From the IMG/VR virus record IMGVR_UViG_3300028571_000020: a DNA stretch of 64,000 nt; one strand, 5' to 3'. Both the position numbers and the translations under genes were made by a program. The stretch comes from an uncultured virus (IMG/VR IMGVR_UViG_3300028571_000020). Its lineage: Duplodnaviria; Heunggongvirae; Uroviricota; Caudoviricetes. Positions 10,588 to 64,000 of this stretch are shown here, in pieces (the first letter of the stretch is position 1; each line of letters begins with the position of its first letter). The notes beneath the pieces were generated by a model. That model was not told the DNA's origin. It saw nothing but the letters and a program-made list of their open reading frames with translations, and made no database searches.

Positions 10588-10600
10588 GCCACAGAGTGGC

Positions 10601-13736: not shown

Positions 13737-13779
13737 CCACCGCCTGCACGTTCATGCACTAGACTAGGCACTCTTGTGC

Positions 13780-14358
13780 ATGAACCGTTTAGACGTCATT
13801 CGAGCACTTCTCAAAGCAGCGGACGTCCTGAACGCTGCAGCAGCCGGACGGGTCTACGTCCTGCACAAAGACGCAGAAGGGAAGCAGGTCGGCGACTGGA
13901 TTACACCAGACGCCGATCCGGATATCCTTGAAGCACAGATTCGGGACACGACCCAGCAGCCAGCTGGTACCAAGCTGGAGTTCTCCGTCACGGAGTACGA
14001 GGACTTCCCAGACATTGGAGAGCGGCCCAAGCTGTCCACCCTCGCACAGGTTGTGACGCTGCTTCAGGGCAGCCCAGTTGACGTTGTGTCGGCTGCCCTT
14101 GAGGTAGCTGGCCGCGACGTCTCGAACGCAGCCAAGCTCATCGAGCTTGGCTACACCATCCACAAAGACGATGAAGACTACGCCTACTCCGTCGTTGGAG
14201 ACGTAGGTGGTCCCCAGAATCTGGGTGATGATACTCTCATGGCATACTTCGACTTCGAGAAGTATGGCAGAGACCTCATGCTAGAGGTGATTAACGCTGA
14301 CTTGAAAGATGGACGTATCGTTGTTTTCAACAAGCCTAAAAAGGACAGTGAATCATGA
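13780..14358 (+). CDS. ardA: ArdA-like antirestriction protein with an extra N-terminal leader
   Basis: Acidic; EFSVTEYEDFP, EDYAYSVV and C-terminal YFDFEKYGRDL match the ArdA pattern (YFDYExxGRDL). Confidence 0.8.
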   Translation: MNRLDVIRALLKAADVLNAAAAGRVYVLHKDAEGKQVGDWITPDADPDILEAQIRDTTQQPAGTKLEFSVTEYEDFPDIGERPKLSTLAQVVTLLQGSPVDVVSAALEVAGRDVSNAAKLIELGYTIHKDDEDYAYSVVGDVGGPQNLGDDTLMAYFDFEKYGRDLMLEVINADLKDGRIVVFNKPKKDSES

Positions 14359-21409: not shown

Positions 21410-21434
21410 AGAAGCCCCGACAACCGGGGCTTCT
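21410..21434. terminator. Terminator hairpin between convergent genes
   Basis: AGAAGCCCCG-ACAAC-CGGGGCTTCT. Confidence 0.75.
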
Positions 21435-43300: not shown

Positions 43301-43536
43301 AGGCCGCTTCGTACCTACAGAGCGAGATTGTTTCCGAACTGGGTTCCATGATCAGCGAAGGAAAGATCGGTCGCTACACGGACGAGAACGGTGCTGCTCG
43401 TGAGCTTGACGTCACCAAGGATGTCACGGCAGTTCGTGACCGTCGTGACCCAACCAAGTCGTACTTCCGCTGCGGTTGGAACAACAAGTACGCCACCCTG
43501 TACGTCGATGGTCTGGTTTCTGTTGACGGCATCTGA
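40330..43536 (+). CDS. Probable contractile tail sheath protein with large insertions
   Basis: AGGAG RBS; N-terminal LPGAVI; C-terminal LDGSFLAVGLAA...LQDAGIICL...QRQYVLNRLQAAVNKRVIG pattern typical of sheath C-termini; followed by a strong terminator. Confidence 0.75.
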   Translation: MVERGRLPGAVIGQIFRADGGLTREFPRRAGIIAKALDIRLFRDAGITRGLVVGEQLPFSGVTYTAPLSSPAIPDKARARLYMSDGRSVTVSRWNFSESTPGSNVFDQITIDPAIFSSVTSYSFDYVANDPDLVDEIPVDDLREILAVGDGRSQVKYREGTDFYLPTTVTGPTAGTSNAFGATRGVSVVSVHPSNSVTGDNTAPNPIISFNSSAYSHDYNRHYEIEVISASGAPAARVAVLEVRALPTSAGNAVSLPRDLDIENGITISLVEATPATLTGIATEFGVTLNFAFGAAGNFVPGDKYAYDGLGLGVIEPDAKMLNTNQFAAVSAVAAVGALAGEATITTNAQSLFTGSDNQTYEIECTAAGGVTPNRTATLRWRSNPSLKKLTGTVTATLSSASLVGIGSAFLSELTVGDKLLVDNNGFVVQVLSVTNNNLATLTAVSPFATTTSVPCLRYRQRSSTINIAEASLTRLALDSGILFDVSLGSALPGDNFTIGDTFTLTASPARIVYNGKENRSYDMTVTSATGPHQTTVSFSGSTPAATFGSVIMSEGNPLVLPNNAVFHARNTSGAPRYSISPAGDTFDVAMTPDGTIDWTLEKEVTEVISTSSLLRDLTGSRTGTVGAFYVLLNKVPTSVTYVRGPSPTFADLAFNVVSGTTIVWFTTNPTVNMTIKYRTAGLEPSPGATYYMTGYYKRPDTDYSMPQTFASRSEAVDFLAPMTITNDAAIANEIAWDQDELSLPGVVVVLVKDSDGDGQYVPADYADAIRVSQEMEATTDFTVVNQFAAREEFRDSIVNSNDPTIARRRIGYNGFPTNYPIGDEFTAGSRIYTARRELQVFEETVARGSIACIGNSFAKKTIRVDSLGDGSVDSIPTQVTLDGSFLAVGLAARVSSFSEPWMTVYNLPMSGFDDIEVLTKTQMIALQDAGIICLNVEDGTATYVGTMTTDETEPSTEQLSGTVQRQYVLNRLQAAVNKRVIGMVADTPEEAASYLQSEIVSELGSMISEGKIGRYTDENGAARELDVTKDVTAVRDRRDPTKSYFRCGWNNKYATLYVDGLVSVDGI

Positions 43537-43554: not shown

Positions 43555-43588
43555 GAAGAAACCCGGAGTTCTCCGGGTTTCTTCGTTT
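43555..43588 (+). terminator. Intrinsic terminator
   Basis: GAAGAAACCCGGA-GTTC-TCCGGGTTTCTTC followed by GTTT. Confidence 0.85.
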
Positions 43589-43598
43589 GGAGCACGCA

Positions 43599-44046: not shown

Positions 44047-47000
44047 ATGAGCATCACAATCAGCGCTGGCGTCATATACAACCCCGAAGACCCACAGCAC
44101 CGGTCCATGCTGGCAAAGGCCCTCAAGGACAAGCTGGGGGCCGCTGGGTTCAAGCTGTCGACTGATAGGTCACGCGACCCCGGTCGTACTTACGGCCAAG
44201 GCTACAAGGGCGCTGAGGAGGTCTGGGTATTCCAGCACAAGGATGACGCTGGCCTCGAAGTGCAGGTCTTCACATCGATCGTGACAAACGGCGAGGTTCG
44301 CTCCAAGGGAGCAGACGCCATTCGTGTCTGTCTTGTGTACAAAAACAAGGCGAAGCAGACGGGTACTGAGAACCCTGACGCCCGTCAATACGATGTTGGT
44401 TCAGGTTGCCGCGTGTATCGGTCTGGTGATATTGACCAGATCGTCGAGCGCACTGTTGAGCGGGCGAGGGAGATGTACCGTCTGGCAACTGCTACCGACA
44501 AGTGCCGCTACTGCAATGCTCCCATGGTGAAATCCAAGCAGGGCAAGATGTTCTGCTCTGAGACTTGCTGGCTGAAGAAGCCAACGATGTCCTCCTTCAT
44601 TGACGCGGCGTCCATTGGTAAGCACCCAGACCTGTTCTCAGAGCAGGACTCAGACATCATTGGCGATTGGCGCGACTTGTCGGAAGCGGACCTCCTCGAC
44701 GCCGCCAAGAACGGTCTGCTGTCATCAGACGACATCGAAGAGATTCAAGGTCTATGGAGTGAAAACGCAGACACGGTTGTCGAGCAGGAAGGTCTCAGCC
44801 AAGAGTTGGCTGAAGCCATCGTGAGGGAGCCTGAGGTCAAGAGCCTCGGTTGGAAACTCAACAGCCTCAATGAGGACTTCCAAGAGGAAGCACAGGCGAA
44901 GCGAATCAAGCCTTTCATTGACTACTGGAAATCAGAAGGTGAGTTCGCTCTGGAGAGCGAAACGTCTGGCGATGGTCTTGAGAACTACGTGGACTACTTC
45001 CAGCAGAAGATGGAAAGAGGTAGCTCCACATTGTTGACTGATAAGTACATCGAGGAAGTCAGGAAAGAACTCAATACACAGTACGACCAAGCGAGTTTGG
45101 TGACCACTGAAATGCTCAAAGAGGCGCTGGCCGATACAGATATCTACACAGCAACTATACACAAAGACGGCTATAGCGGCGGCTTTGACAAGTACCTAAT
45201 CGGTGCTGTTGAAACATCCAACGGAAATGCTTCAGAAGAGTTGAAGGAAGTAATGGCAAGCATGACTGCCGATGACTTCAAGAAGGCCATCAGCGAACTG
45301 GAAGGTGAATCGCCGTACATCCGACTGTCACTCCGTGGCAAGCCGCAAACAGCTGCGGAGTACGTTAAGGCTTTCACAGATTATGAGGTGACTATCAGGA
45401 TTACCGAGTCCGAAGACTGGTGGATTTCTTTCGATCCAAACTACGACAAGCTGATCAAACTCCTGCAGCCTTCTGTCAACGAAGTTGAGCCAGAAGGGGC
45501 CGAGGACAAGATCGTTCACACCTACTCAGGTACGAATGACACCGTCGCTGGTGCATCGTCAAAAGGCATGTATGTTGTCGCGCTTCGAGTTGGGCAGCTG
45601 AAGGAAGAAGGCAAGAACCTTGGCATCTGCATTGGTCGTGACGATATGCCGTACTGCCGCCAACTGAGGGACGGTGAGATTCGTGTCTACTCGATCCGAA
45701 CTTCATCCGGCAAGCCGAAGTTCACGATTGAAGAAGACGTCGAAGGTCCAGTCATCTCACAGGTGAAAGGCAACTCAAACCGCACTCCGGGCTTCGCTGC
45801 TGACACGTCATCATTCACCAAGGCTGACGAGGTCAGGTTGGTGACCGAGTTCCTGATGACGCTTGGGTACTCTCCAGAACAGATTGAGAAGATTCGGGAT
45901 ATGGCCCCCGGCATCAGAGCCTTTAAGGATTCAGGTCAGGACCCTTTCGCCCCACCTGTCATCAAGAAGCGTGGTTCACAGGAAGGCATTGCTGCAAGCT
46001 TCGATATGCCGATGCTTGCGAGCCCCGCTGTCTTGAAGCTACTCGGTCAAGTTCGCCCATGGGGTGATGAACTCATCGTCAGTGCAGACGCGGAGCAGGA
46101 TGCCCGCATCCAGCCTCTGGTAGACATGTTCAAGAACATCGCCAAATACCATCTGGAATACGTATCGACTGGTGATGGAAGCGAGCACCACCTAGACGAT
46201 TTCATCAGAGAACTGGAAGGAGATGGAAGGCTAGGAGACATGTCCATGGCTGAAACTCGCCAACTACTCAGAGACCGCTACGGTCTTGCAGATGGTGGTG
46301 ACCCGACAGCACATGCTGCTGAGGAAGAGTTCGACAACAGCAGACTCAATGAGATTGACGACGATACACTGAAAGAGCTTCTGTCGGACTCCGACCTTTA
46401 CGACGCTGTCCTCGCCCCGTTCAATGGTTACACGGTCAGATACGGTTCGTTTCATACACATGCCTTCTCTGAAGACATGTCAGACTTTCCTGAGGGGAAC
46501 GAAGAGATGATGGGCGCGTTGTCTTCTTTTGAAGGAGAAGAAGACTACAAAGCATTCATCAAGCGATTGCACGACAACCAACCATTCATCGATATACCGG
46601 ACGCCAAGACATTCAATGACCTCTATGGTGATGTTGAGAATAGTAACAGCATTGAGGTCAAAATAGATGGCTCAGGATATGCAGCAGAATATTGGTTGAA
46701 TCTGCCCAAAGCATTCACAGTTCTGCGTACTCATCTTGGTATTATAGCCCAAAAAGATACTGAAAGGGTTGCGAAGGAAGCTGCCGAAGCTGTTGATGCT
46801 GTCGACTACTCCAAGAATGAAGTAGTCGTGACCATCACCAAAGAGCAGGTGAAGGACTGGGGTATCACCAAAGGCACCATGCTGGAGGAAGCTCCATGGA
46901 AAATCATCAAGCTCAGACCTTCACAGCTGAAGGAGGAAGGCAAGGTGATGAAGATCTGCGTGGGTCAAGAGAACATGCGGTACAAGGAAGCCCTCAAAGA

Positions 47001-48432
47001 AGGTCTGATTGAGATCTGGTCCCTTCGCGACAGGTCCAATCGTCCTAGATTCACGCTGGAAATCAACAAGGAAGACAGCTCAAACGTGGACGGCCACTCT
47101 GTGCATCAGCTGAAGGGCAAGGCCAACCGCACTCCCGGTCTCACCAGCATGTCTGGCGGCGACGTCAAGTTCGCTGACGAGGTCATCTTCTGGATCAACA
47201 CGTTCAAGAAGCTCCACATCAATCCGAAGGATGTGAGCGATTTCCACGCTTGCCGTATGGGAACCGATGAAGCTGGAGTGTCAGCCTCGGTCCAGCGGAC
47301 ATTCAATATGCCATGCCTAGCAGTCTCAGCTGCTGTCCGTGCACCAGACCGGCCATACCATGGTGGTATTGCAGCGAGGGACCTCATTCATCTACTCGAT
47401 GGTGAAGTGGACCATGCAATAGAGTCATGGGAATATGAGCACGATGAACCGCCAGATATGGGAGACTATGAGAGGTCCCACCTAGAGGACGAGTACCGCG
47501 CCGACGGGCAGTCTGAACTTGTCAAACTAGCTTGGAAGTTTGATGACTTGGTGTGGAAGAAGCTCATTGAGCTTGTTAAGAAAACCGTCGAGGCGGCAGA
47601 TGGAGACGACGACGATAAGTTGCGAGAAGCTTACGATGAATGCGAGTACATGTACTCGCAAAGCAGTTTCTCCTACTACGTGTATCAGGAACACAAGGGT
47701 AGTGGTGTAGGCATCTCGGATATCAGGTATGAGCCAAAAGCTTTCGAGATGGATGACATCGACAACCATCTAATCGATAAGGAACTAAAACAACTTGGTC
47801 ACGAACTGGAGAACGCGCTCTACAGCGAAGCTGCAACCATCGTTGACTTCTGGACAGGGAGCAATGCAGCCAGAGGGCCAGACCAAGATGACATTGTGTA
47901 CAAGTACTCAGGAACAAACGAGACGATTGCCGGAGCCTCCAGCAAGGGAATGTACGTCGCCAAGCTCACGCCCAAAGACCTCAGGGATGAGAGCCGAGAG
48001 ATGGGACACTGCATCGGTAACAGACAGCATGGTCACCCCCAGCTTCTGGAAGCCGGTAAGACGGAAGTCTATTCAATCAGGACGGAAGCTGGAAAGACCA
48101 AGTTCACCATCGAGAAGTCTCTCGAAGGCGGTGTCGTGTCCGAAGTCAAGGGCAAGGCCAATCGGCTTCCGGGTTACGAACCAAACAGTGGCACGATGAC
48201 GAAGCCAGACGAAGTCAGGCTCGTTGTGGAGTTCCTCATCAACCACCTGAACCTGACACCAAGCCAAGTGGAAGATACGAGGGACATCCGTGCTGGTGTG
48301 GCAGCACTGAAGGCTCAGGGCTACGACCCCTTCAGCCCGCCACCCAAGAAGGCACCAAGGCCAGTGAGAGACCCCAGACAGGCTCAGGCTGCCTGTTTGA
48401 TGGCCAAGACGGACTACGCTCGCCAGAGCTAA
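44047..48432 (+). CDS. Polyvalent protein: Zn-ribbon domain plus three acidic-domain/PcfJ-like units
   Basis: CRYC...CSETC; three L(K/R)(E/D)E..(L/M)..C(I/V)G...SIR/SLR...FT(I/L)E...KG(N/K)(S/A)NR.PG...DEV units. Confidence 0.85.
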   Translation: MSITISAGVIYNPEDPQHRSMLAKALKDKLGAAGFKLSTDRSRDPGRTYGQGYKGAEEVWVFQHKDDAGLEVQVFTSIVTNGEVRSKGADAIRVCLVYKNKAKQTGTENPDARQYDVGSGCRVYRSGDIDQIVERTVERAREMYRLATATDKCRYCNAPMVKSKQGKMFCSETCWLKKPTMSSFIDAASIGKHPDLFSEQDSDIIGDWRDLSEADLLDAAKNGLLSSDDIEEIQGLWSENADTVVEQEGLSQELAEAIVREPEVKSLGWKLNSLNEDFQEEAQAKRIKPFIDYWKSEGEFALESETSGDGLENYVDYFQQKMERGSSTLLTDKYIEEVRKELNTQYDQASLVTTEMLKEALADTDIYTATIHKDGYSGGFDKYLIGAVETSNGNASEELKEVMASMTADDFKKAISELEGESPYIRLSLRGKPQTAAEYVKAFTDYEVTIRITESEDWWISFDPNYDKLIKLLQPSVNEVEPEGAEDKIVHTYSGTNDTVAGASSKGMYVVALRVGQLKEEGKNLGICIGRDDMPYCRQLRDGEIRVYSIRTSSGKPKFTIEEDVEGPVISQVKGNSNRTPGFAADTSSFTKADEVRLVTEFLMTLGYSPEQIEKIRDMAPGIRAFKDSGQDPFAPPVIKKRGSQEGIAASFDMPMLASPAVLKLLGQVRPWGDELIVSADAEQDARIQPLVDMFKNIAKYHLEYVSTGDGSEHHLDDFIRELEGDGRLGDMSMAETRQLLRDRYGLADGGDPTAHAAEEEFDNSRLNEIDDDTLKELLSDSDLYDAVLAPFNGYTVRYGSFHTHAFSEDMSDFPEGNEEMMGALSSFEGEEDYKAFIKRLHDNQPFIDIPDAKTFNDLYGDVENSNSIEVKIDGSGYAAEYWLNLPKAFTVLRTHLGIIAQKDTERVAKEAAEAVDAVDYSKNEVVVTITKEQVKDWGITKGTMLEEAPWKIIKLRPSQLKEEGKVMKICVGQENMRYKEALKEGLIEIWSLRDRSNRPRFTLEINKEDSSNVDGHSVHQLKGKANRTPGLTSMSGGDVKFADEVIFWINTFKKLHINPKDVSDFHACRMGTDEAGVSASVQRTFNMPCLAVSAAVRAPDRPYHGGIAARDLIHLLDGEVDHAIESWEYEHDEPPDMGDYERSHLEDEYRADGQSELVKLAWKFDDLVWKKLIELVKKTVEAADGDDDDKLREAYDECEYMYSQSSFSYYVYQEHKGSGVGISDIRYEPKAFEMDDIDNHLIDKELKQLGHELENALYSEAATIVDFWTGSNAARGPDQDDIVYKYSGTNETIAGASSKGMYVAKLTPKDLRDESREMGHCIGNRQHGHPQLLEAGKTEVYSIRTEAGKTKFTIEKSLEGGVVSEVKGKANRLPGYEPNSGTMTKPDEVRLVVEFLINHLNLTPSQVEDTRDIRAGVAALKAQGYDPFSPPPKKAPRPVRDPRQAQAACLMAKTDYARQS

Positions 48433-48469
48433 GTCTGACCACGGACCGGCAGCTTTGACACTCTTCATC

Positions 48470-51049
48470 ATGAAGATCAAAGCTGCCGATCCGGGTCGGG
48501 TCATCCCGAAGAAGTTCTACGTAGCGATGCCCTTCGAGGCGGACCCGCAGGACCGGAACCACCACCTGCTTGAGGGTATCGCCAAAGGCGTGCTTGAGGG
48601 CATCCGTGGCATTTCCGACAAGGCAGAAATCATCATGCAGTGGTACGGCATCGCCAGAGATGCCGTACTCGCTATGGATGGCCCAGAGCTTGTGAAGCTC
48701 AACAACCTCAGCCGGGTGCAATACCACAACCCTGAGTACTTCCTCAGCAACAACATGGCTGCCCTTCGCCGCATCTTGGACTCGAAGGACGACAACTACT
48801 ACGCCAGACATGTAGCTGGTGTCGTGCTGGGCTACGTTTTGATGTACGTGAGGAATCCGGCGAAAGCCAAGTCTGGCGATGTGCCCGTTAAGGAGTTCGT
48901 CACCAAGTTCACCAAGCACACGATTGAGCTTCAGAAGGCATGGAAGAGCTTCCTGAACGAGACTGGTGACCACGCCACAGACCCACACGATGCCAAGCAG
49001 ATGTTCAGCAAGACCAGCCTGAGTGATTGGGACATCAAAGGTCTTCTGAAGATGTGTGATAAGATCTTTGAGAACATGGAGATGTTACTTGACCGCATTG
49101 GGCGTGACCAACTGGAGACCAAGTCTGTCGAGTACTACTTCCAAGAACTGGAGCAGACGGGATTCTTCAGTAATTTTGATGACGCATTCAAGCAATCGGA
49201 CGAAGCCATTGAATATGCAATGGCCTATGGGGACATCGATGCTGCTCGGCTATCTCACCTGATGGATGTTCTCGTCACCATCATCGAAGACATTCGAGGC
49301 ATGGCTGACCTTCGTGAAGAGCTACTGCAACTCACGAACAACTACGCCAAGATGTCACAGCTGGGGTACAAGCTTCAGGACTCAGGCGTCAGGGGCTTCT
49401 TCGAAGATACCTTCAGTAGCCCAGAAGCCAAGAAGGCACAGACGGTGAAAGCACTCGCCGCCGTGTTCTACGCCAAGGACAACGAGCGTAAGAGCAGGAA
49501 GCTAGACATTGACCTCTCTACGTGGGAGCAACTCATCCGTGGTGGGCTCCAGCGCCTTGGCAAAATCTACAGCAGCGAAGGCGAATGGATCGTCAAGGAC
49601 AAGAAGATTGTTGTCCCCAAGGGTTCAGTACTATTTGTCACCAAGACCGCTGACATCCCAGAAGATATCAAGCAGCGCTACGACGCCGGGGAAGCCACTG
49701 GTTTTGACCTCTTCATATGGCGAAGTGAGCTTGAAAAGAGGAAGCAGTATGAGGATGTTCTCAACAACTTGGGGCTCGCCAAGCGTTACCGCGTGGTGCG
49801 AATCGACAGGAAGAAGTTCGACGAAGCTCGAAGCAAATGGCATGTACGACCCAAGAAGGTCGCAGCCTCAGACAATGGGGGCGAAGAACGAGAGCCGCTT
49901 CCAGAAGACATGCTCGAAGCACTGAAGATGGTTGATGACGGCTACACCAACGAAGAGGAGACCTCTGAAGTAGAGAAGCGCCTTCAAGGATATCCGAAGG
50001 TCAAGATTGGTCTAATCGATAAGGTGCTTGACGACATGTTCATTGTCGACGACAAGATTGTCGAATACGATGACGGCTACGTGAAAATCAGGAGCCCCGA
50101 AGACTGGCTGGGAAACGAGGACCACCTGCGTGACCTTGTCTCCGATGCTCTTGCTGAGAAGTTCTCAGCCGATTTCATGGAGTATCCCGGTAAGCTGTAC
50201 CACGCCACTCCAAGCGAAAACGTCAAGTCAATCATGAAGAATGGGCTGAGAGCGGAGAGCAGAACCCGTGGACTGACGAACAGAAGTGTTGGTCACGCTA
50301 TCTTCACAACTGACGACCTAGACAACGTCAGCGACTCTTACGGAGACGCCGTGGTTGAGATTGATGCAGCTGCCATGAAGGCAGACGGCATCAAGTTCTC
50401 AGTGGAGATGGAGCCAGCTGTATTCGAGCTAGAAGCTTACGACATCATCGCTTCGTCGATTGGGCTCAACGAGCATGGCATTTCAACTGGTGGCGACGGC
50501 GCTGACGATCCTTCGACAGTCATCCTGCATGTCGGTAACGTCGACCCCAAGTACCTGAAAGTTGTTCGGAGCAGCGAAGTAGAAGACGATGAAGATGAGT
50601 CAGTCGACGCCTCCGTCAGCACGAGCGAAGTCCACTGGAAGGTCATCAGTCCAGACACCATGTACATTCCTCCAACGGACTTCCTGCGTCTCACAGCGAC
50701 TTCCCCTGACAGTTCGGCCATCAAGCAGAAGCGGGTGAAGGAATACGCTGACCTGATGAAGTCGGGTCAGGAGTTCGAGGTCCCGTCACTGGGTGTTCAG
50801 AAGTACCGCGACGGTGCAGCTGTGCAGTGGCATGATGGTCGCCATCGTGCATTGGCTGCACTCTCACTGGGAGTCAAGACCATTCCTGTTCAGATCGATG
50901 TAGACGGTGACGCCGAAGCTCCTGACATGCGGAAGCTCCTGTCAGGAGAACCAGTGACGTGGACGTCCCAGTACGCAGAAAATGCTGATGACAATGAAGA
51001 CTTCCCGAGCGACTCGGATGTCATGATTCGCAACATGAATGGCGGTTGA
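48470..51049 (+). CDS. Polyvalent protein: unknown domain X, ART/KptA-like domain, ParB-like domain
   Basis: KLYHATPSENVKSIMKNGL...AIFTT; HDGRHRALAALSLGVKTIPV. Start moved to ATG 48470. Confidence 0.8.
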   Translation: MKIKAADPGRVIPKKFYVAMPFEADPQDRNHHLLEGIAKGVLEGIRGISDKAEIIMQWYGIARDAVLAMDGPELVKLNNLSRVQYHNPEYFLSNNMAALRRILDSKDDNYYARHVAGVVLGYVLMYVRNPAKAKSGDVPVKEFVTKFTKHTIELQKAWKSFLNETGDHATDPHDAKQMFSKTSLSDWDIKGLLKMCDKIFENMEMLLDRIGRDQLETKSVEYYFQELEQTGFFSNFDDAFKQSDEAIEYAMAYGDIDAARLSHLMDVLVTIIEDIRGMADLREELLQLTNNYAKMSQLGYKLQDSGVRGFFEDTFSSPEAKKAQTVKALAAVFYAKDNERKSRKLDIDLSTWEQLIRGGLQRLGKIYSSEGEWIVKDKKIVVPKGSVLFVTKTADIPEDIKQRYDAGEATGFDLFIWRSELEKRKQYEDVLNNLGLAKRYRVVRIDRKKFDEARSKWHVRPKKVAASDNGGEEREPLPEDMLEALKMVDDGYTNEEETSEVEKRLQGYPKVKIGLIDKVLDDMFIVDDKIVEYDDGYVKIRSPEDWLGNEDHLRDLVSDALAEKFSADFMEYPGKLYHATPSENVKSIMKNGLRAESRTRGLTNRSVGHAIFTTDDLDNVSDSYGDAVVEIDAAAMKADGIKFSVEMEPAVFELEAYDIIASSIGLNEHGISTGGDGADDPSTVILHVGNVDPKYLKVVRSSEVEDDEDESVDASVSTSEVHWKVISPDTMYIPPTDFLRLTATSPDSSAIKQKRVKEYADLMKSGQEFEVPSLGVQKYRDGAAVQWHDGRHRALAALSLGVKTIPVQIDVDGDAEAPDMRKLLSGEPVTWTSQYAENADDNEDFPSDSDVMIRNMNGG

Positions 51050-54000
51050 CGTGGACTACACTGATGAACCAGCTACCGCAGTCGATATCGATTATGCTAT
51101 GGAGTTCGAAGAACAAAGGAGGTTCGCCTCGACAGACAAACTGGTTTGGTCCAAGACCAATGCATACCCAACCGACAAGCTCATGGCCGTCTTCAAAACG
51201 AAGAAAGAAGCCATTGACTGGATGGCTTCCGAGAAAGAACACAGCGAGCGTCCTGATGACTACTACGACAACATGGAGTCTTGGGTCAATAGCGGCGACG
51301 ACTTGGAGCAGATAATCGTAATAGAGAACAAGAGCGGTAAGGTCGTAGACATTTGGGATGGTTGGCATCGCTCGGCCATTGCCATCGCGAATGGTGTCAA
51401 GTCACTCCCAGCAATCATCGGCAGGCCCATGACAAAGATCAAAGCTGACAGCTTCACAGAAGCCGACATTCCTCGTGACTTCCGTGTCATGCTTCGCCTA
51501 CCCAATGACCACATCCTTGATGTAGGTGAGCAGCTTGCCAAGGGAGAGTTGAAGGGTATCACGGGGATTACAGACGCGGGGTCCGTGCTGCAGCTTCGCA
51601 TGTTGGGCCAGAACCGAAACGCCATGCTGGTGATGCCGGGTGCCGCTGTCGTCGCCGCAAACTCACTCAGCCGCGTGATGTACGACAACCCTGAGTACCT
51701 GATGTCCAAGGACATGTCGGCTGCCCAGCGCCTCTTGGGTGCCCGTCGTGACAAGGAATCCGTCATCCGCACCATCATCCAGAAGATGGAGAAGGCCAGC
51801 CCCGAGTTCATGGGCAGATGGAATGCCCTTGACGTGTTCCCAGCAGCCGCCATGGCAGGGATACAGCTGAATTCAGTGCGTGATTTCGCTGAATCCATGT
51901 ACGAGCTTTCCCTTTCGAAGGTCAAGGAAGCCATCGAGAGGAACAAACCGTACTCCGATGAGAAGTGGTTTGAAGAGCGCTTCGGCCCTTTCACCGACGT
52001 TGACCAGTACGTCGAGGCAACCCGACTCGGTCTTCTGACGTTCGGCAAGGACTTCGTTTGGGAGGGCGAGTGGATCGTCAAGGACAAGACGCTGAACATC
52101 CCTCATGGTTCGAAGCTCTACATCCTCAAGACGGGACCAAGGTCACAGGAAGCTAAAGCTATCGTTGACCAGCATGAACTCGATAAGAAGTACAAGGTCT
52201 TCTACGTCGACGAAGCGAAGATGAACAAAGCGTCTCACGGTCTGGGCGATAAAGCTGACAAACTCGTGTCAGAACGTTGGAAGGTCAAGGCTTCCGGGGG
52301 CGTGGCAATTCAGGTGGACAATAACTACAATAATTACGTCTCACATGCGTTGCGTGAATTCCGAGCAGCGGACTGGTTGGACGAAGACGGCCACTACTTC
52401 GACGGAATGCAGCAGGCGATCTGCGAGCAAGTGATCGACATGTTGAACGTGTTCGCAGACGAAGGACATTCAGGCTCGTCGGCAATGTACGCGATACAGT
52501 TATTTGAACAGCTGGCGAAATTCAAAGCAATTGCTCCACTCACTGGTGCTGACGATGAGTGGAATGAGGTCGGAGACGGGCTGCACCAGAACAATCGATT
52601 GTCGACTGTATTCAAGCAGCAACAACCGAACGGCGACTTCGAAGTTTACGACATCGAAGGAATAATTTGGTACGACGACGAGATACGCAATGATGGCACG
52701 TCATATAAGTCGTATTTCACAAACTCAGATTCAGCAGTACCAGTCGTCTTTCCGTACACACAGAAGACGATTGAGAAACCGGCGCGGGAACAGCCCAGCA
52801 ACAGATTCAGTGCGAACTTTTCTCAAGTCAGTTTTGCCGTACTCAGCAGCAAATGGCCAACTTTGGCTGAGGTCAGTAACCATGGGAAGAAGCTATCATC
52901 TCTTCCCATGTCAGCGAAGCTGACCATCGAGGCCGAGATTGCAGCCAGCTACCAGCCTCATCTCGTCCTGACCGCCGCTGAAGAAGACAAGACGTACAAG
53001 GCCCTATGGGTTGGTGGGCCACCGGGTCGGACCATGGTGAAACTCAAGAAGAAGCTCGAAGACGTTGGCATTGTCATCGTCCGCCAGTCGTTCAATGAAC
53101 GGAAGCTTCCACCTGTTGAAGGGTACGACCTCGTCCTGTTCAACGTCGACCTCCTGAGCCACAACGACTACTACGCAGTGAAGGACGCCACCAAAGAGGC
53201 AGAGGTGCCATTGGTATCGGCAAGCCTTTCGTGGTCCAAGATGTACACAAATCTAGTCGCATCTGGATTCGTGAAGGAAGCTGGCAAAGCCGTAGACCAG
53301 ACTTGGTATCACGGCTCCACCAAGCCCATCACGAACTTCACGAGTGAGTTCGTTGGCAAGGGTAACGACCAGATGGGTCCGGGTATCTACTTCACGTCAG
53401 ACCGCAAAGAATCACTGAACTACGGTCAGTCGATTGCCGAAGTGAAACTCAACTGGAAGAAGAAGCTTGACCCATACGCCGACGTGGACCAGAAGCTGCT
53501 GGACTTCCTGCTGGAGAAAATCCCAGACTGGGACGCGGAGAACGATGCCTTCTGGGGAGAACCAACGGCGGATGAAGCGAAGCGCAAGCTCCGCGAGACC
53601 CTTGTTGGAGGCAGCAATGTCTGGATGTTGAGCCAGCTTCAGGGCAGCACCATGTACTATGGTGGCAACCCGAAAGCCCTCATCGATAACGTCGTCGCGT
53701 TTGGCTACTCCGGTTTTGAGGTGCCGTCAGGCTCTACTCAGAACGAACCGAGCAGTCTCGAAACCAAATGGGCTGTGGTATTCGACCCATCGATCATTGA
53801 GAAGGGCAGCACCGTCAAGGCGTACCCAATGGCCGATGTGGTTACTCCAATGACGGACACACAGCTTCAGCCCATCGCGGCTGAGTCAAAGAAGGCCATC
53901 AAGAGCCTTGTCGACCCATTGCGCAGTGAGGTCAAGAACTTCATTGCTGGTGTGTTCTCCGAGACGACCCCTAGCCTCGACGCACACACGGACGAGCTAA

Positions 54001-54686
54001 CCCAAGCATTCCAAACCACTTGCGATATGCTGCCAAGATTCGTGCGTTTGTACCGCAACGAACTGGTAGGGCACAAGAAGACGGCTCGCAAGTTCCTGTC
54101 GTGGGCATTCACGCGTGACCTCGTCGAAGACTTCTCAGGCCGCGATAGGGAACTGAGGGAAGTCGTTGTACCACGCGAAGCCATCATCGCGGTGTTCGCC
54201 ATTGGCCATGGCAACTACATCGAAGCGCTGGTCAGCACCAAATACACTGAGCAGGATCGTAAACCAGCAGTTGACCGCACCGCCGACAAGGTCGGTAAGG
54301 CAGTCAAGCAGTATGCCAAAGACAACAGCCTTGCCAGCAATATCGAGAACAACGTTGCAGTTGCTTACGCGTTGACTGCAATGCGTAACCTGCTTCCGGG
54401 TGTGAAGATCATTGGAATCACGAACATTGACGGTGACCCAGAGCTTCTGCATGTGGGCGCTCTACTTGACGGTCAGGTGATCGACATTGATGGTGCCCAC
54501 CAAGGTGAGAGCAGCTGGGTGGATGAATGGTCTGCCGCCCATGGCGTTGCTGGGGATACCAAGCAAGCTGATATCATGGAGATGAGCGCCAGAGACATCG
54601 AACCAGACATCAACATGTATCGGTCGAAGACCGACAAGATGACAGCTGACCTTGAACCAATCATCCGTGCCGTGAGGTCATCCTGA
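51039..54686 (+). CDS. Polyvalent protein: ParB-like, domain X, conserved phage-type domain, DUF2325-like, ART-like domains
   Basis: WDGWHRSAIA; EGHSGSSA...APLTGADDEW; LWVGG...DLVLFNVDLLSH; WYHGS...MGPGIYFTSD; RLYR...FLSWAF. Confidence 0.8.
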   Translation: MAVDVDYTDEPATAVDIDYAMEFEEQRRFASTDKLVWSKTNAYPTDKLMAVFKTKKEAIDWMASEKEHSERPDDYYDNMESWVNSGDDLEQIIVIENKSGKVVDIWDGWHRSAIAIANGVKSLPAIIGRPMTKIKADSFTEADIPRDFRVMLRLPNDHILDVGEQLAKGELKGITGITDAGSVLQLRMLGQNRNAMLVMPGAAVVAANSLSRVMYDNPEYLMSKDMSAAQRLLGARRDKESVIRTIIQKMEKASPEFMGRWNALDVFPAAAMAGIQLNSVRDFAESMYELSLSKVKEAIERNKPYSDEKWFEERFGPFTDVDQYVEATRLGLLTFGKDFVWEGEWIVKDKTLNIPHGSKLYILKTGPRSQEAKAIVDQHELDKKYKVFYVDEAKMNKASHGLGDKADKLVSERWKVKASGGVAIQVDNNYNNYVSHALREFRAADWLDEDGHYFDGMQQAICEQVIDMLNVFADEGHSGSSAMYAIQLFEQLAKFKAIAPLTGADDEWNEVGDGLHQNNRLSTVFKQQQPNGDFEVYDIEGIIWYDDEIRNDGTSYKSYFTNSDSAVPVVFPYTQKTIEKPAREQPSNRFSANFSQVSFAVLSSKWPTLAEVSNHGKKLSSLPMSAKLTIEAEIAASYQPHLVLTAAEEDKTYKALWVGGPPGRTMVKLKKKLEDVGIVIVRQSFNERKLPPVEGYDLVLFNVDLLSHNDYYAVKDATKEAEVPLVSASLSWSKMYTNLVASGFVKEAGKAVDQTWYHGSTKPITNFTSEFVGKGNDQMGPGIYFTSDRKESLNYGQSIAEVKLNWKKKLDPYADVDQKLLDFLLEKIPDWDAENDAFWGEPTADEAKRKLRETLVGGSNVWMLSQLQGSTMYYGGNPKALIDNVVAFGYSGFEVPSGSTQNEPSSLETKWAVVFDPSIIEKGSTVKAYPMADVVTPMTDTQLQPIAAESKKAIKSLVDPLRSEVKNFIAGVFSETTPSLDAHTDELTQAFQTTCDMLPRFVRLYRNELVGHKKTARKFLSWAFTRDLVEDFSGRDRELREVVVPREAIIAVFAIGHGNYIEALVSTKYTEQDRKPAVDRTADKVGKAVKQYAKDNSLASNIENNVAVAYALTAMRNLLPGVKIIGITNIDGDPELLHVGALLDGQVIDIDGAHQGESSWVDEWSAAHGVAGDTKQADIMEMSARDIEPDINMYRSKTDKMTADLEPIIRAVRSS

Positions 54687-54689
54687 ATC

Positions 54690-57600
54690 ATGACTACCAT
54701 CAGTGAACTTCTCAAGCGGGCAGCCAACACCATTGCAGCTGCCCACAAGCAACTGTCCGCGAACAACCTCAAGGAAGTCCACTCAGCCCTGTTTGCGGGG
54801 CTGGAGAAGTACTCCGGTCAGGACAAGTACGTCCACTTCTCGAACATCAACAAGATCGGTATCAACCCGAACAAGTCGCACAAGGACCCGCACGGCATCT
54901 ACTTCTACCCACTCCAATACCTGTTGGACAATGGGGTGGACCGTGGGCAGTACGCCATTGATTTCAAGTACGCCTTCATCGTCGACATCGATAAGAACGA
55001 CAACGGTTTTGTTCTGCAGGACATGACGAACGACGATGTGGCAACTATTGCAGGTGACAACGGTTGGACTGCTCCAACTGAGTCTGACTTTCCGGGCTCG
55101 AACTTCTTCAAGACATGCGACAAGCTGGCCAACTCCAAGGGAGGACCAAGCTGGTCCAAGCTCCTGCGTGGAATCGATTGGCTGGAGGACAAAGGTGAGT
55201 CCATCATCGCTGGCGACGAACCTGCTCAGATGATTGTCCTGAACGCAAAGCTGATTCGAGTTGTCGAGTTAATCGACAACAAGAGGGACCTGTTCGGTGC
55301 CGCCAAGTCCGTCATTGACCCAATCGTTGAGGAGTTCAGTGGCTCGAAGCTTTCGATCAAGAAGGTCAAGAACAAGTACGGAACCAACAACGTCGAGATG
55401 ACTTCAACCTTCAAGGACTTCACAGTCAAGTTCTCCTTTGAGGATAGCACGAGTGCGAGTGACAACCTGCGTGTCACTGTCACCTCCAGCGATGGGGATG
55501 ACGTTACGCTTGTGGACATGGGTCGAGGGCAAGAGACTTCGATTGCTGCGCTACGCGATATCCTGCAGCACCACGATCGTGCTGCAACAGTCAGTGCCAG
55601 CCGTACCGCCGCCGCACCCATGACGATGTTCCACGGCACAGCCTCAGGTCCGAACAACAGCCGCCTGCGCTCCATCCTGAAGCACGGCTTGGTTCCCACC
55701 GCTCCGAAGGCATGGGCTGATGACCCAGACGCAAAGCAAGCAGGTCGGCGGTCCAGAGCCTCGTACGGTGGAACGTACTTCTCCTCAAATCTACGGACGG
55801 CACTTCAGTCTGGTCACCACTCAAGAGGGAATGACAAGTCGCAGTACCCAATCGTTATCACGGCAACCATCCAGCCTCGTGCTGCTTTGCCTGACGAAGA
55901 CGACTACACCTTCAACGTCGACCACGCCTACCACTACGCCGTCAAAACGGTCGACCACCCTCATACGGATGGCTACTATTACCTGTGCCTTTTCTTGGAC
56001 GGTTTCGACAACAGCAAGCTGAAGGAAGCACAGCAGCGCTTCGCCGAGAACATTGCTGGTATGTTGAAGAGCCACGGCGTCAGCCTTGAGATGCCAAGGC
56101 TCATGAAATTCACTGAACCACTGTTCGAGGCAGAGGTCGTACGTCGCGTCTCCAACCAGCCCAACGACTGGTACGGCTTCAAGCAGACCGTTCTAGGTAG
56201 AGCGCTTGGCTTCTACAAACATGACAAACAAACTCCAATGGAGGAGGACCAGCTTCCAGAGAGTCTACGCCAGCCGCCGTCTCGTGACGAAGGTGAGACC
56301 AAGTTCCGGTCAGCGCTGGATGCACTGACCAAAGCCACACGTCGTCTGGCCATTGGTCTGGAGACTCACGGCGAAGATGCACAGCAGCGATTCCGGCACG
56401 CACTCAGAGTCATGGAACCCGTGACGTACGGTGGCAGGAATCGAATCACCAGCGTTGCGTCACTACCGAACTACTACTCGCGAAATGCGACGGAACGCGA
56501 GACGGTAACCGTTGTGTCTCACTTCGGCGACCCGTCAGCAATCGTCAAGCAGCTTCAGGAAGCTGGCTACGAAGTTGACGTTGTGAAGCCAAACCAGAAG
56601 GTAGTGAGCGCTGCTGACGACTATAACGAAACTGGGATGCTGGACCTCCTGAAACCAATGGGGCAGTCAAAATCCATTGGTGTGGAGAAAGGGTCAACGA
56701 AGAAGGACGGCATCTCGGTATTCAAGAATCCAAACGGCAGCGTCAGGTATGTGGCGTCTAAAGATGGCGTGAACGTGGCCGTTCTCCAGTTGATGGTTCT
56801 GGATGGTTCAGCAACCGCTACCAACTCCTATACAGCACCAGAGCATCGACGCACTGGTCTCGCTACACAGCTGTTTGAGCGAGCCAAGAAGGACTATCCA
56901 AACCTCGTTCTATCCGATGACAGAACTGGCGACGGGATAGCTTGGACGAAGTCTCTAGATGCTGCTTCAAACTCTGGCGACCTCTTCGAGGTGAAGACCA
57001 ACTTCCCTGAAGCGGATATGTGGCTTATTCGTAAGGGAACACCCGACAAGGTAGGTTCCGTCACCAAGACGTTTTCACCCGAGCACATTGGTATCAAGGT
57101 CAAGGATACGAACGTCATCCTACCGAGCTACCTGTATTACGTGTTGATGCACCTGCATTCCACTGGCCTGTTCAAGAAGCAGGCAACTGGTTCAACTCGA
57201 CTACAGAACATCACAACCACAATGGTGAAGGAAGCACTCGGTCTACTCAGCCCGAGGATTGTTCAGTCGTCGATCTCAGCAGCTGCCTTCACTGACGAGA
57301 CAGGCAAGTTCTGGGGAGCGCAGGGCGCCGGTGCGATCTTCCTCGCCGCCGACACAGGCCGTATCCTGCTTCAGCACCGTAGCCCTTACGTCAACGAGCC
57401 CAACACATGGGGTACCATTGGTGGAGCTATCGACGCAGGAGAAGACCCGCAAGAGGCCATGAAGCGTGAAGCCGAAGAAGAGACCGGCTACCATGGCGAG
57501 ATGAAGGTGGACCCCATCTTCGTCTTCAAGAGCGGCAAGTTCCAGTACCACAACTTCGTCGTGACGGTACCAAAGGAGTTCGACCCCAAGGACAGCTGGG

Positions 57601-59042
57601 AGTCGCAAGGGCACATCTGGACCACCATTGATGACCTACCCAAGCCGCTGCATTTCGGGTTTGTGTCTGCCCTACCGTCCCTCAAGGAGTACCTTGAAGA
57701 GAACGTGAAGGACTCGAAGGTATCAGCTGCCACAACACCTCTTCCAGCCGAATTCTCCAGCAATGATCCCGGACTTCTCACCTTGAGCGAGTACTTCGAG
57801 AAGTCAAACCCCGGTGACAAGTCACATCCGAATAGTGCCTACGACTTTGACTTGAAGAGGATGAACTCTGATAGATCCATCCACTCCAAAGGCAATTCAA
57901 AGAACGGTCACAATAGCTACCGTATTGATGGCAACAACAAGGGTTATCTGGTGTACAAGGAAGATGACACCATCAGCACCCTCGTTGGTGTTGTGCACAA
58001 CGGTGTGCTGTACTGCAACAAGGCGGACGTCGATATCCCTCAGTACTTCATACCTTTCAGGGGATCATCAAGCGAGAGTTTGGGATTCTCCTCAACCAAG
58101 CAGGTGAAGTACCCAAGTGAATACGTCAGGCTGGTGAGCGATATCGCCGACCTCAACCGCAAACAGTATGCTGTTCTATTGCAGAATATCACTGTGCAGG
58201 GTGAACACTTTCAATTGAGAGCAGAGAAGACCCCCGAGAAGGATGCAGGAGTCTCTCTCGCCATCCTGAATGATAAGGGCGAAGTGGTAGCCGAAGCCAT
58301 GAATGAATGGGGCTGCACATTGCTCACGGTGGCCAGAGAGTACCGGGGCAAGAAGCTCGGCCAAGTGATTGGCAAGGTATGGACAAAGATGAACCCGAAA
58401 TATGAGTCTGGTGGCTACACACCAGACGGCAGGAAGGCCGCTCGCCTCCTGTGGGAGGACCGAGTTCGAGAGTTCAAGGAGAACGGCTGGTACTCCGAAC
58501 TCGTCAAGAGTGGCAAGCTGACAATCGACAAGGTGAAGGAGATTCTTTCGTCGCTTCGAGCGAGAAAGCCAGAATTACCGCCGCCTCCAACCACTGAAGT
58601 GAACAAGGGAGAGACTCTCATCTATCTGGACGACTTGGACGAGCCCGTTAGCTTCGTGGTCTACAACTCGAAGTTCCTTGAAGACCAAGATGACAAGTAC
58701 ATCTTGGCTCATGGATTCTTCAGGTCATCTGAATCAGTTGGGTCTTTCCTTTTCAAGATCGATTACGAACCGGAGCAGGCCAAGCTTGCCACATACATCG
58801 CACTGCAGATGTCGAAGATGAACGGTGAGCCCATCTACATTGGCGAGGGTTACGGCGACATGCTTGAACTGGACGGGCTAGATAATGTGGAGGTGGGCGG
58901 CGATTATGCCACACTCAACAAAGATGTCCTGCCGCTCAAGAATCTTGCCAAGAAGGAGATTCTTGCTCGCAAGCCCTTCGACAAGTATCAACAGGTGTAC
59001 CACTCGCTGGTGGAGCAGGCTGACGCGAAGTGGAACAACTGA
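54690..59042 (+). CDS. Polyvalent protein: two ART-like domains, GNAT, HsdS-TRD-like, NUDIX, second GNAT-like domain
   Basis: YVHFS..GIYFYP; MFHGT..SILKHGL..GTYFS; TAPEHRRTGLATQL; ILPSYLYYVL..ATGSTRLQNIT; Nudix box GGAIDAGEDPQEAMKREAEEETG; VAREYRGKKLG. Confidence 0.85.
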   Translation: MTTISELLKRAANTIAAAHKQLSANNLKEVHSALFAGLEKYSGQDKYVHFSNINKIGINPNKSHKDPHGIYFYPLQYLLDNGVDRGQYAIDFKYAFIVDIDKNDNGFVLQDMTNDDVATIAGDNGWTAPTESDFPGSNFFKTCDKLANSKGGPSWSKLLRGIDWLEDKGESIIAGDEPAQMIVLNAKLIRVVELIDNKRDLFGAAKSVIDPIVEEFSGSKLSIKKVKNKYGTNNVEMTSTFKDFTVKFSFEDSTSASDNLRVTVTSSDGDDVTLVDMGRGQETSIAALRDILQHHDRAATVSASRTAAAPMTMFHGTASGPNNSRLRSILKHGLVPTAPKAWADDPDAKQAGRRSRASYGGTYFSSNLRTALQSGHHSRGNDKSQYPIVITATIQPRAALPDEDDYTFNVDHAYHYAVKTVDHPHTDGYYYLCLFLDGFDNSKLKEAQQRFAENIAGMLKSHGVSLEMPRLMKFTEPLFEAEVVRRVSNQPNDWYGFKQTVLGRALGFYKHDKQTPMEEDQLPESLRQPPSRDEGETKFRSALDALTKATRRLAIGLETHGEDAQQRFRHALRVMEPVTYGGRNRITSVASLPNYYSRNATERETVTVVSHFGDPSAIVKQLQEAGYEVDVVKPNQKVVSAADDYNETGMLDLLKPMGQSKSIGVEKGSTKKDGISVFKNPNGSVRYVASKDGVNVAVLQLMVLDGSATATNSYTAPEHRRTGLATQLFERAKKDYPNLVLSDDRTGDGIAWTKSLDAASNSGDLFEVKTNFPEADMWLIRKGTPDKVGSVTKTFSPEHIGIKVKDTNVILPSYLYYVLMHLHSTGLFKKQATGSTRLQNITTTMVKEALGLLSPRIVQSSISAAAFTDETGKFWGAQGAGAIFLAADTGRILLQHRSPYVNEPNTWGTIGGAIDAGEDPQEAMKREAEEETGYHGEMKVDPIFVFKSGKFQYHNFVVTVPKEFDPKDSWESQGHIWTTIDDLPKPLHFGFVSALPSLKEYLEENVKDSKVSAATTPLPAEFSSNDPGLLTLSEYFEKSNPGDKSHPNSAYDFDLKRMNSDRSIHSKGNSKNGHNSYRIDGNNKGYLVYKEDDTISTLVGVVHNGVLYCNKADVDIPQYFIPFRGSSSESLGFSSTKQVKYPSEYVRLVSDIADLNRKQYAVLLQNITVQGEHFQLRAEKTPEKDAGVSLAILNDKGEVVAEAMNEWGCTLLTVAREYRGKKLGQVIGKVWTKMNPKYESGGYTPDGRKAARLLWEDRVREFKENGWYSELVKSGKLTIDKVKEILSSLRARKPELPPPPTTEVNKGETLIYLDDLDEPVSFVVYNSKFLEDQDDKYILAHGFFRSSESVGSFLFKIDYEPEQAKLATYIALQMSKMNGEPIYIGEGYGDMLELDGLDNVEVGGDYATLNKDVLPLKNLAKKEILARKPFDKYQQVYHSLVEQADAKWNN

Positions 59043-63323: not shown

Positions 63324-64000
63324 ATGGACCATAAGACTCGTGACCAAGTTGTGAACTCCCTCCGTGCAGCCGCAGCTACTCTGCTGCGTGAGAGCCTTCC
63401 TCCAAAGGCGAAGAAGCCAGTGAAGGCTTCAGTCGACTATGCCGCTGCTCTCAAGCTGGCAATGGATGCTTCCGCTAAGGCTGATGCGTGCAAAAACGAT
63501 GCTGAATGTGAAGCCGCACACAACGAGGCAGCCAAGCTGCACACCAGCGCTGCACAGATCGCTGAGGACGCATTCCAGAATCACGAAGCAAGAGCCAGCA
63601 ACCATCAGCACGATGCTCGCGAAGCCGCAAAGCGCGCATCGATGTCTTCGAAGAAGACAGCGTCCAAGACCGCCGCTGCACACATTGAAGCGGCCAAGCT
63701 GCACACCAGTGCAGCTAAGAAGCGCCCAGTTCGCGCTTCAGCGCTCAACACGTTTGAAGACAGCTATGTCACGACCATGCTGTGGTCAACGAATGACGAG
63801 TCTAATGACGCAGGTGGCGAGCCCCTCGACAGGAACTACTCAGCGACTGACCTTTCTCCAGAAGCGATTGAGAAGGTGAAGAAGGATTGCACGTCCTTCA
63901 AGGAGAAGGCTGGCGATCTTCTTGACGGCCTTGACGATGACCAAGTCGCTCACGATTTCTGGCTGACTCGCAATGGCCACGGCGCTGGCTTCTGGGACGG
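63324..64000 (+). CDS. Multi-module protein, truncated by window edge (not in ORF track)
   Basis: Translated by hand: MDHKTRDQVVNSLRAAAATLL...KPVKAS...(EAAKLHTSAA twice)...RPVRAS...AHDFWLTRNGHGAGFWD, open to the end. Confidence 0.85.
   Translation, partial: MDHKTRDQVVNSLRAAAATLLRESLPPKAKKPVKASVDYAAALKLAMDASAKADACKNDAECEAAHNEAAKLHTSAAQIAEDAFQNHEARASNHQHDAREAAKRASMSSKKTASKTAAAHIEAAKLHTSAAKKRPVRASALNTFEDSYVTTMLWSTNDESNDAGGEPLDRNYSATDLSPEAIEKVKKDCTSFKEKAGDLLDGLDDDQVAHDFWLTRNGHGAGFWD

Follow-up and report, generated by a model that had tools for sequence, protein, structure and literature searches.

How a phage polypeptide that strings together several unrelated enzymes might be taken apart into separate products is the question raised by four closely packed plus-strand open reading frames (ORFs), here called A to D, at positions 44047 to 59042 of the IMG/VR record IMGVR_UViG_3300028571_000020. 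The record is a stretch of 64,000 nucleotides from an uncultured virus of the Caudoviricetes, called the window in what follows, and it looks like part of a large phage. In A to D, a short motif composed of an aliphatic residue, any residue and Ala, followed in its strict form by Ser or Ala ([VIL]xA[SA]), lies at the borders between modules; it is conserved in diverged orthologues, and modules have been inserted, deleted and swapped at these places.

On balance, we lean towards the view that A to D are polyvalent cargo proteins, and that the phage's own head-maturation protease would cut at the motif, P1 being occupied by Ala and P3 by an aliphatic residue (arrows within motifs mark the presumed cut). 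We infer cleavage, packaging, ejection and the acting protease from the sequence patterns described below. The precursors would enter the prohead, some of them addressed by a short N-terminal amphipathic leader; the head-maturation protease would then cut them into separate enzymes, and the resulting pieces would be ejected along with the DNA. A wider scenario is put forward more tentatively, as a possibility somewhat short of an even chance. It holds that a lineage of large phages has retuned its head protease from Glu to Ala at P1, arriving at a herpesvirus-like V/I-x-A↓S punctuation by which one precursor could give rise to up to about twenty anti-defence enzymes. The sites would double as borders for module swaps, as with Tad3, and a separate Ala-rich leader would send ArdA and other proteins to the capsid.

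Modular Composition of Proteins A to D

The initial annotation had described the four ORFs as effector polyproteins, a description with which the domain searches agree. Several unrelated effector or enzymatic domains are found per polypeptide; they comprise PcfJ (three times), Tad3, NUDIX, GNAT, ParB-like domains and three ADP-ribosyltransferase-like (ART-like) domains, ART/PARP-like matches included. A to D belong to the class of polyvalent proteins, which are strings of independent anti-defence or host-modifying modules.

44047..48432, plus strand: protein A, 1461 residues; Zn-ribbon N-terminal domain (1-188), then three PcfJ-type repeat units (189-650, 651-1080 and 1081-1461), detected as internal repeats by BLAST/MAFFT; orthologues P0157-P0163
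48455..51049, plus strand: protein B; carrier module (about 9-471), ART/Tpt1-like domain (576-650), ParB-like domain (753-821)
51039..54686, plus strand: protein C, 1215 residues; ParB-like N-domain (1-136), carrier module (137-418), Tad3 (432-551), DUF2325-like domain (670-739), ART-PolyVal (756-837), C-terminal domain without assignment (949-1215)
54690..59042, plus strand: protein D, 1450 residues; N-domain (18-277), ART-like lead (304-641), GNAT (681-735), small unassigned domain (760-864), NUDIX (879-988), phrog_29287 domain (1025-1448)

PcfJ (PF14284, E 2.5e-18) is matched in three stretches of protein A, the Tad3 module of protein C by PF25185 (E 8.6e-32), and the last domain of protein D by phrog_29287 (E 5.8e-106). 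The ART-PolyVal match in C (PF18760, E 3.1e-6) reaches 28.4 bits, or 30.6 bits for the segment alone, which is below the curated cutoff of 31.2; the same stretch is matched by phrog_25279 (E 6.1e-17). The assignment of residues 304-641 of D to ART/PARP is a lead only (Atlas score 0.88). The true start of protein B is likely the ATG at 48470 (MKIKA↓ADPG), and P0004 is the window's own product from that ATG.

Position of the Motif Relative to Domains

All 19 motif strings reported in the initial annotation are present and in frame at their coordinates, 15 in A to D and four elsewhere in the window. The list was selective, since it contained only 12 of the 26 strict [VIL]xA[SA] matches, and three of its sites end in Asp or Glu (VSAD, IKAD and IAAE). 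In the 4990 residues of A to D, the 26 strict matches compare with 12.4±3.3 expected from whole-protein shuffles, and the narrower [VI]xA[SA] is found 21 times for 7.4±2.7 expected; in 35 other ORFs of the window, 79 [VIL]xA[SA] matches were counted for 64.0±7.4 expected. The raw count is modest evidence only, because a background excess of about 1.7-fold is found in related long proteins as well (see below). When 32,768 class patterns were scanned blindly, [VI].[AS][AS] ranked second and [VI].[A][AS] fifth; a scan with single-residue patterns did not single out the motif.

The position of the matches was then related to domain blocks, defined as Pfam/PHROG envelopes together with high-scoring segment pairs to paralogues and homologues; the blocks were delimited by hand on the basis of the search results, and any domain lacking annotation is counted as outside. 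Outside the blocks lie 21 of the 26 matches, for 6.6±2.5 expected when the outside residues alone were shuffled, and none of 2000 shuffles reached 21. The result is unchanged after trimming the block ends by 0, 3, 5 or 10 residues. Control motifs show no enrichment outside the blocks, with 9 matches for 6.6 expected with the reversed motif, and 8 for 5.4, 1 for 4.3 and 9 for 5.1 with the variants that carry Ser, Gly or Glu, respectively, in place of Ala. As the shuffles were restricted to outside residues, an Ala/Ser/Val-rich linker composition is not the explanation, and the proposal that the motif marks module borders holds beyond such composition. In all, 23 candidate sites fit the form [VIL]-[SAKDR]-A↓[SADEY]. 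The codons at the sites of the window vary synonymously, both Ser codon families being used, which indicates that the signal sits in the protein rather than in the DNA.

Junctions in A to D

The sites in the four proteins, all on the plus strand, are as follows.

44599..44610, plus strand: IDAA↓S, where the N-domain of A meets repeat unit 1
45988..45999, plus strand: IAA↓S (site 1), end of repeat unit 1 of A
46078..46089, plus strand: VSA↓D (site 2), 30 residues past site 1, after PWG in A
47278..47289, plus strand: VSA↓S, where repeat unit 2 of A ends; VSAA follows as another match at 47323-47334
48476..48487, plus strand: IKA↓A, five residues into B from its likely start; forms a minimal N-terminal leader to the carrier module
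49859..49870, plus strand: VAA↓S, in B, immediately past the point at which the carrier module naturally ends
50603..50614, plus strand: VDA↓S, in B, past the ART-like domain and ahead of the ParB-like one
51438..51449, plus strand: IKA↓D, ahead of the carrier module of C; homologous to the Glu/Ala position of the family
52284..52295, plus strand: VKA↓S, left edge of the Tad3 cassette in C
52938..52949, plus strand: IAA↓S, where the Tad3 cassette ends on the right; P0002 is homologous again from about 12 residues ahead of the site
53874..53885, plus strand: IAA↓E, candidate, in C, past the ART-PolyVal region and ahead of the C-terminal domain; outside blocks, with comparative support from P0002 only
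54732..54743, plus strand: IAA↓A, residues 15-18 of D, end of a short N-terminal leader; the paralogue in ORF 1102-2187 has PVSA↓Y there
55590..55601, plus strand: VSA↓S, past the N-domain of D
56604..56615, plus strand: VSA↓A, ahead of the GNAT module of D
56955..56966, plus strand: LDA↓A(S), past the GNAT module of D
57273..57284, plus strand: ISA↓A, ahead of the NUDIX module of D
57720..57731, plus strand: VSA↓A, ahead of the last domain of D

Where module borders could be defined in other ways, they coincide with the motif. The three repeat units of A are bounded by IDAA↓S, GIAA↓S and GVSA↓S, and six orthologues of A have [VIL]xA[AS] one to six residues ahead of the unit start [IL]G[KE]HPD. 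Stand-alone carrier modules end exactly where protein B reads RPKK-VAA↓S. Genes that encode the last domain of D alone are present in an IMG/VR contig and in two phages, Agrobacterium phage Atu_ph07 and Salicola phage SCTP-2, and the start of their products is no more than a few residues away from VSA↓A. The NUDIX domain of P0019 is likewise bracketed by LAA↓S-type matches; one NUDIX protein among the relatives reads GVRVA↓SP, which is outside the pattern.

Conservation and Module Exchange at the Motif

Comparison with relatives provides stronger evidence than the motif counts. In the orthologues of A (P0157-P0163), which are 44-46% identical to it, the form [IL]-x-A at site 1 and the form V-x-A at site 2 are both found in seven of seven aligned sequences, with varying flanks, and the extra modules that these orthologues contain are also flanked by the motif. 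P0002, which is 95% identical to protein C over 49% of the latter, has an additional ParB-like module between KIKA↓D and SFTEAD, and the inserted module itself ends in KVKA↓D. Another cassette replaces Tad3 in P0002, between VKA↓S and IEAEIAA↓S. In B-like relatives, the carrier module is followed by KK[VL]A[ASG].

Two observations may be added on individual modules. The Tad3 (Thoeris inhibitor) module of C, at 52284-52949 (residues 416-636), is a swappable cassette, the slot of which holds in P0002 an unrelated module of about 115 residues with no Pfam match. The stand-alone carrier-family proteins P0052, P0127 and P0144 end in ...KKVSA, ...AKAVA and ...KVADA, respectively, and their C-termini thereby resemble products of a cut after Ala at a junction.

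The Carrier Module and Its Glu/Ala Position

A profile of the carrier module present in B and C matched 399 proteins, 264 of them at E <= 1e-10. Most are stand-alone proteins of about 300 residues, in which a short leader precedes the conserved sequence S-[FY]-x3-D-[IV]-P. The residue two positions before the conserved Ser of that sequence, taken as the P1 equivalent, was recorded in 93 module instances, and it is Glu in 70, Ala in 20 and another residue in three. Leu or Ile is found two residues ahead of the Glu in 56 of the 70 Glu forms, which is the L/I-x-E site of T4 gp21. The site is N-terminal in 52 of these 70, with the Glu at residue 6-26 (mode 9), a layout that recalls the capsid targeting sequence of T4 (PMC9026906), and the internal junctions of long polyvalent proteins comprise 18 Glu forms, such as ESLDE↓R, and 11 Ala forms. 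In the clade of the window, Ala is present in eight of eight sequences (support 97). These alignments support the idea that the motif behaves as a protease site, and that it would be this lineage's counterpart of the T4-type L/I-x-E at a homologous position.

The carrier module is absent from PHROGs (0 of 10 proteins matched), and none was found in cultured phages by tblastn or in genome contigs. A scan of metagenomes yielded 19 loci, mainly on short contigs and too few for an association test. A weak Atlas lead (0.81) to DUF932/DUF3871 was not used.

Head Proteases in Related Phages

As the initial annotation stated, the prohead protease gene lies outside the window, and relatives were searched for the enzyme. 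Among the Glu-type records, G003, a complete genome of 192 kb, encodes an S77 protease of the gp21 type together with a gp23-type capsid protein, and G007 also encodes an S77 gp21-type protease. In G001 (262 kb) and G002 (307 kb), each termed Ala-type, no protease of the S77, S78 or S49 families was matched. Both encode a head maturation protease of phrog_18299, the gene of which lies beside the terminase and portal genes in G001. In this protease, an invariant His and an invariant Ser lie at a distance of 53 residues, the spacing also found in the S77 pair.

The link between these genomes and the window is a conserved protein.

40330..43536, plus strand: conserved protein of 1068 residues, just upstream of A, used as a marker of the phage group

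Without a match in Pfam, PHROG or PDB, it has homologues at 14 IMG/VR loci (G001, G002 and 12 further ones) on contigs of up to 424 kb, with 25-33% identity over nearly the full length. The phrog_18299 protease was found in five of 11 further relatives with this protein, including all four of those that are at least 90% complete. Given common descent as traced by this group, the window phage probably carries a protease of the phrog_18299 type.

A ClpP-family gene is present in both G001 and G002, and the G001 copy (239767-240372, L016) lies between helicase and primase genes. The ClpP-like protein was dropped as the leading candidate for an Ala-specific enzyme on account of that position, and the gene is probably unrelated, being located in a replication cluster.

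In a further IMG/VR record, G012, the homologue of the capsid protein is matched in three separate pieces on the same strand within 317.8-320.1 kb (L101, L105 and L106), which suggests a capsid gene interrupted by an intron, an intein or a frameshift.

A Candidate N-Terminal Leader

Three unrelated proteins of the window share the pattern [VIL]xxxL[RKN][AK]A[AD]x[LI] at residues 9-11.

6041..7315, plus strand: ORF without assigned function; leader at residues 11-24, RRVIAAALNKAADLL
13774..14358, plus strand: ArdA antirestriction protein; N-terminal extension of about 25 residues with the leader DVIRALLKAADVL; PF07275 from residue 30
63324..63998, plus strand: ORF with the N-terminal leader QVVNSLRAAAATLL; carries VKA↓S (63420-63431) and, just before a phrog_1915 domain, VRA↓S (63729-63740)

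The phrog_1915 domain is common in small phages and uninformative. Four matches to the pattern occur in all six-frame ORFs, the fourth of them antisense, for 0.05 expected, a statistic that is circular, as the pattern was itself derived from inspection of these three proteins. Similar leaders start P0014, P0003 and P0164. This Ala-rich N-terminal pattern is a candidate capsid-targeting leader, and its presence on ArdA may mean that ArdA is loaded into the capsid, and not only expressed early.

Comparison with Known Systems

Herpesvirus assemblin (S21) cuts its maturation and release sites at V/L/I-x-A↓S. The initial annotation had drawn attention to this likeness, and the motif indeed has that form, with an aliphatic P3, Ala at P1 and Ser at P1'. 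The likeness is one of site shape only, and no assemblin-family protein turned up for the window phage, for which no Pfam S21 search was made. The protease gp21 of T4 has been described as homologous to the herpesvirus protease (PMC9026906).

In T4, the capsid targeting sequence comprises 10 residues and is cut at L/I-x-E by gp21, an S77 protease (PMC9026906). As may hold for the proteins considered here, a short N-terminal leader is followed by a three-residue site with an aliphatic P3, and the tag is common to unrelated cargo (PMC9026906). The carrier-module family carries a T4-type tag, with Glu, in 70 of 93 instances. In contrast, the window lineage has Ala rather than Glu at P1, its sites lie between the modules of very long proteins, and its candidate leader is a longer, Ala-rich amphipathic pattern. 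With Ala where its relatives have the Glu of L/I-x-E, the window system is likened to that of T4 and not classed as a member of it.

The proteases of two other large phages, phiKZ gp175 and SPN3US gp245, cut at S/A-x-E and A-x-E (PMC9026906; PMC10052503). Many head-internal ejection proteins are cut at a short motif in these phages, which recalls the situation proposed here, and the SPN3US protease prefers Val at P4 and Ser at P1' (PMC10052503). Unlike the proposed enzyme, however, the phiKZ and SPN3US proteases cut after Glu (PMC9026906; PMC10052503). In phage P1, the Dar proteins provide another parallel, in that large anti-restriction proteins are loaded into the head through an N-terminal signal, as for DarB, and injected (PMC9024508). 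The P1 capsid protein, in contrast, is cut after Glu120, and the sections of that report drawn upon here describe neither a junction code nor the release of enzymes from a polyprotein (PMC9024508).

A likeness in protein architecture is to the polyvalent proteins of Iyer, Burroughs, Anand, de Souza and Aravind (2017), known from phages and conjugative elements, which were predicted to be packaged, delivered with the DNA and proteolytically processed (PMC5512222). Like A to D, they combine many unrelated effector domains, ART and ParB-like ones among others, and are encoded by phages next to virion genes (PMC5512222). Their processing has been ascribed to built-in peptidase domains (MPTase or assemblin-like), the assemblin-like ones being C-terminal in some of these proteins (PMC5512222), whereas A to D show a junction code instead. 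The parts of that paper used here describe no inter-domain cleavage motif, and the term 'linker' has 0 occurrences in the paper (PMC5512222).

Weighing the Possible Explanations

Several findings weigh against a cut site for the phage's own head protease. Glu and Ala are both strong helix formers, and their alternation at the edge of the carrier module could reflect a structural constraint; the best tree of the family requires 10 Glu/Ala changes, and strongly supported branches force only at least two independent switches. Five of the 26 strict matches lie inside domain blocks (5.9 expected). The excess of [VI]xA[SA] over shuffles, about 1.7-fold, is found in related long proteins of the Glu and Ala types alike, and a count test across the carrier family did not separate the two types. 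The Ala-type label of G001 and G002 rests on one protein each, and KIA↓R, the site in G002, is a poor fit. A test over the whole genome for enrichment of the motif at N-termini was null in these two records, and gave a weak result even in the T4-like control G003 (odds ratio 1.24, p 0.07). In the G001/G002 group, the N-termini of the capsid proteins have no clear V/I-x-A site. Homologues of A and D are almost absent from the 11 relatives searched. The phrog_18299 protease has no PDB relative by sequence, and a fold relation with S77 was not significant by hhalign (probability 0.4%). The leader statistic is circular, as already said, and the cuts in SPN3US yield N-terminal propeptides, except for the self-cleavage of the protease, rather than releasing multiple enzymes (PMC10052503).

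The two helix-forming residues, the matches inside domains and the general 1.7-fold excess would also suit an uncut motif, that is, a conserved junction element, whether a linker or cap or the fossil leader sites of fused genes, in proteins that act at full length. There is precedent for this, as transfer without processing has been described for the virion RNA polymerase of phage N4 and for some polyvalent proteins of plasmids (PMC5512222). We nevertheless consider it unlikely: a purely structural linker is not expected to present Glu or Ala in 90 of 93 cases with an aliphatic residue two positions before, mirroring a known protease site; the motif is retained in orthologues whose flanks drift; and between blocks there is no enrichment of the reversed motif or of its Ser, Gly and Glu variants. 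Quite unlikely, in our view, is cleavage of the sites by some other enzyme, be it one of the host, a ClpP-like protease of the phage or a peptidase active once injection has taken place. A small P1 with an aliphatic P3 also suits Ser/Lys-dyad peptidases such as signal peptidase I, and G001 and G002 both encode a ClpP-family protein. The host protease Prp cuts the capsid and scaffold proteins of phage 80alpha (PMC5744158), and processing after injection was proposed by Iyer et al. for some polyvalent proteins (PMC5512222). However, the Glu forms fit the specificity of phage-encoded gp21-type enzymes, an S77 protease being encoded in two Glu-type records, and the ClpP-like gene of G001 is outside the head module. 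Nor is there a hydrophobic stretch resembling a signal peptide ahead of the sites, and no peptidase domain was found in A to D with Pfam, PHROG and segment scans. Chance, combined with an Ala/Ser/Val-rich linker composition, is very improbable. The motif is admittedly short and degenerate, its sites were picked by eye with the last position widened ad hoc, and the single-residue scan fails to find it. The inter-block shuffles, the conservation of the motif in orthologues and the location of module insertions and deletions at the motif nevertheless largely refute this explanation.

Novelty and Implications

If the motif is the cut site of the head-maturation protease, the mechanism itself would be a known one by analogy with T4, phiKZ/SPN3US and P1, in which a prohead protease is combined with a targeting leader. 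The packaging and processing of such proteins are also already in print in general form (PMC5512222). It would depart from these systems in its Ala at P1, which gives the site the shape of those of herpes assemblin, and in punctuating a series of exchangeable enzyme modules with that site. No phage head protease cutting after Ala was found described in the literature searched, which is not proof of absence. Phage 80alpha was discarded as a precedent for Ala at P1, as the host protease Prp performs the cut there, at F↓A (PMC5744158).

The packaging and processing of polyvalent proteins were predicted in 2017 with the manner of their dismantling left undefined, and a junction code, if true, would make that prediction directly testable. 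Module borders and mature products would become predictable from sequence, and the exchange of anti-defence cassettes as units would be explained. It would also follow that the specificity of prohead proteases can switch between Glu and Ala while their substrates co-evolve at the same positions. Both the code and the leader would be useful for directing foreign proteins into phage heads, a purpose that the targeting sequences of T4 and P1 already serve (PMC9026906; PMC9024508).

Other Features of the Window

Motif strings reported outside A to D occur in the ORF at 63324..63998 described above and in two minus-strand ORFs.

1102..2187, minus strand: paralogous to the N-domain of D; carries PVSA↓Y (residues 15-19, 2131-2142) and, 14 residues before the stop codon, LVRA↓S (1147-1158)
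7699..10635, minus strand: further polyvalent protein with PcfJ, LRV repeats and pentapeptide repeats; VKA↓S (8779-8790) separates the LRV part from the pentapeptide part

The first of these is followed by a PcfJ-related ORF (1-1101). The pentapeptide domain of the second is Qnr/MfpA-like (DNA-mimic type) and precedes an acidic C-terminal tail. A search for stand-alone homologues of the N-domain of D gave a single match, P0155, the source of which is named as a metagenome-assembled genome of Candidimonas sp., a weak hint of a betaproteobacterial host.

Megablast of the window against cultured phages returned zero matches. Exact 40-base searches for sequence beyond its flanks gave no match in IMG/VR or in the metagenome contigs. 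Single-protein searches for close relatives in IMG/VR gave none for the 1068-residue protein or for C, and one locus for the last domain of D.

The cluster of A to D lies 3' of a block of tail/virion-type genes and of the conserved 1068-residue protein. The neighbouring minus-strand block at 24-35 kb has PHROG matches to tail-fibre, head-decoration and virion-structural proteins. Among the tail/virion-type genes is one for a patatin-like phospholipase (PF01734, E 2e-18) at 20185-21423 on the minus strand. Directly upstream of A, a small ORF (43587-44033) has a weak match to the RyR domain (E 1e-5, below cutoff). Within the cluster, the ORFs are tightly coupled: B and C overlap by 11 bases (51039-51049), and C and D are in the same frame, only a TGA and one codon apart (54684-54692).

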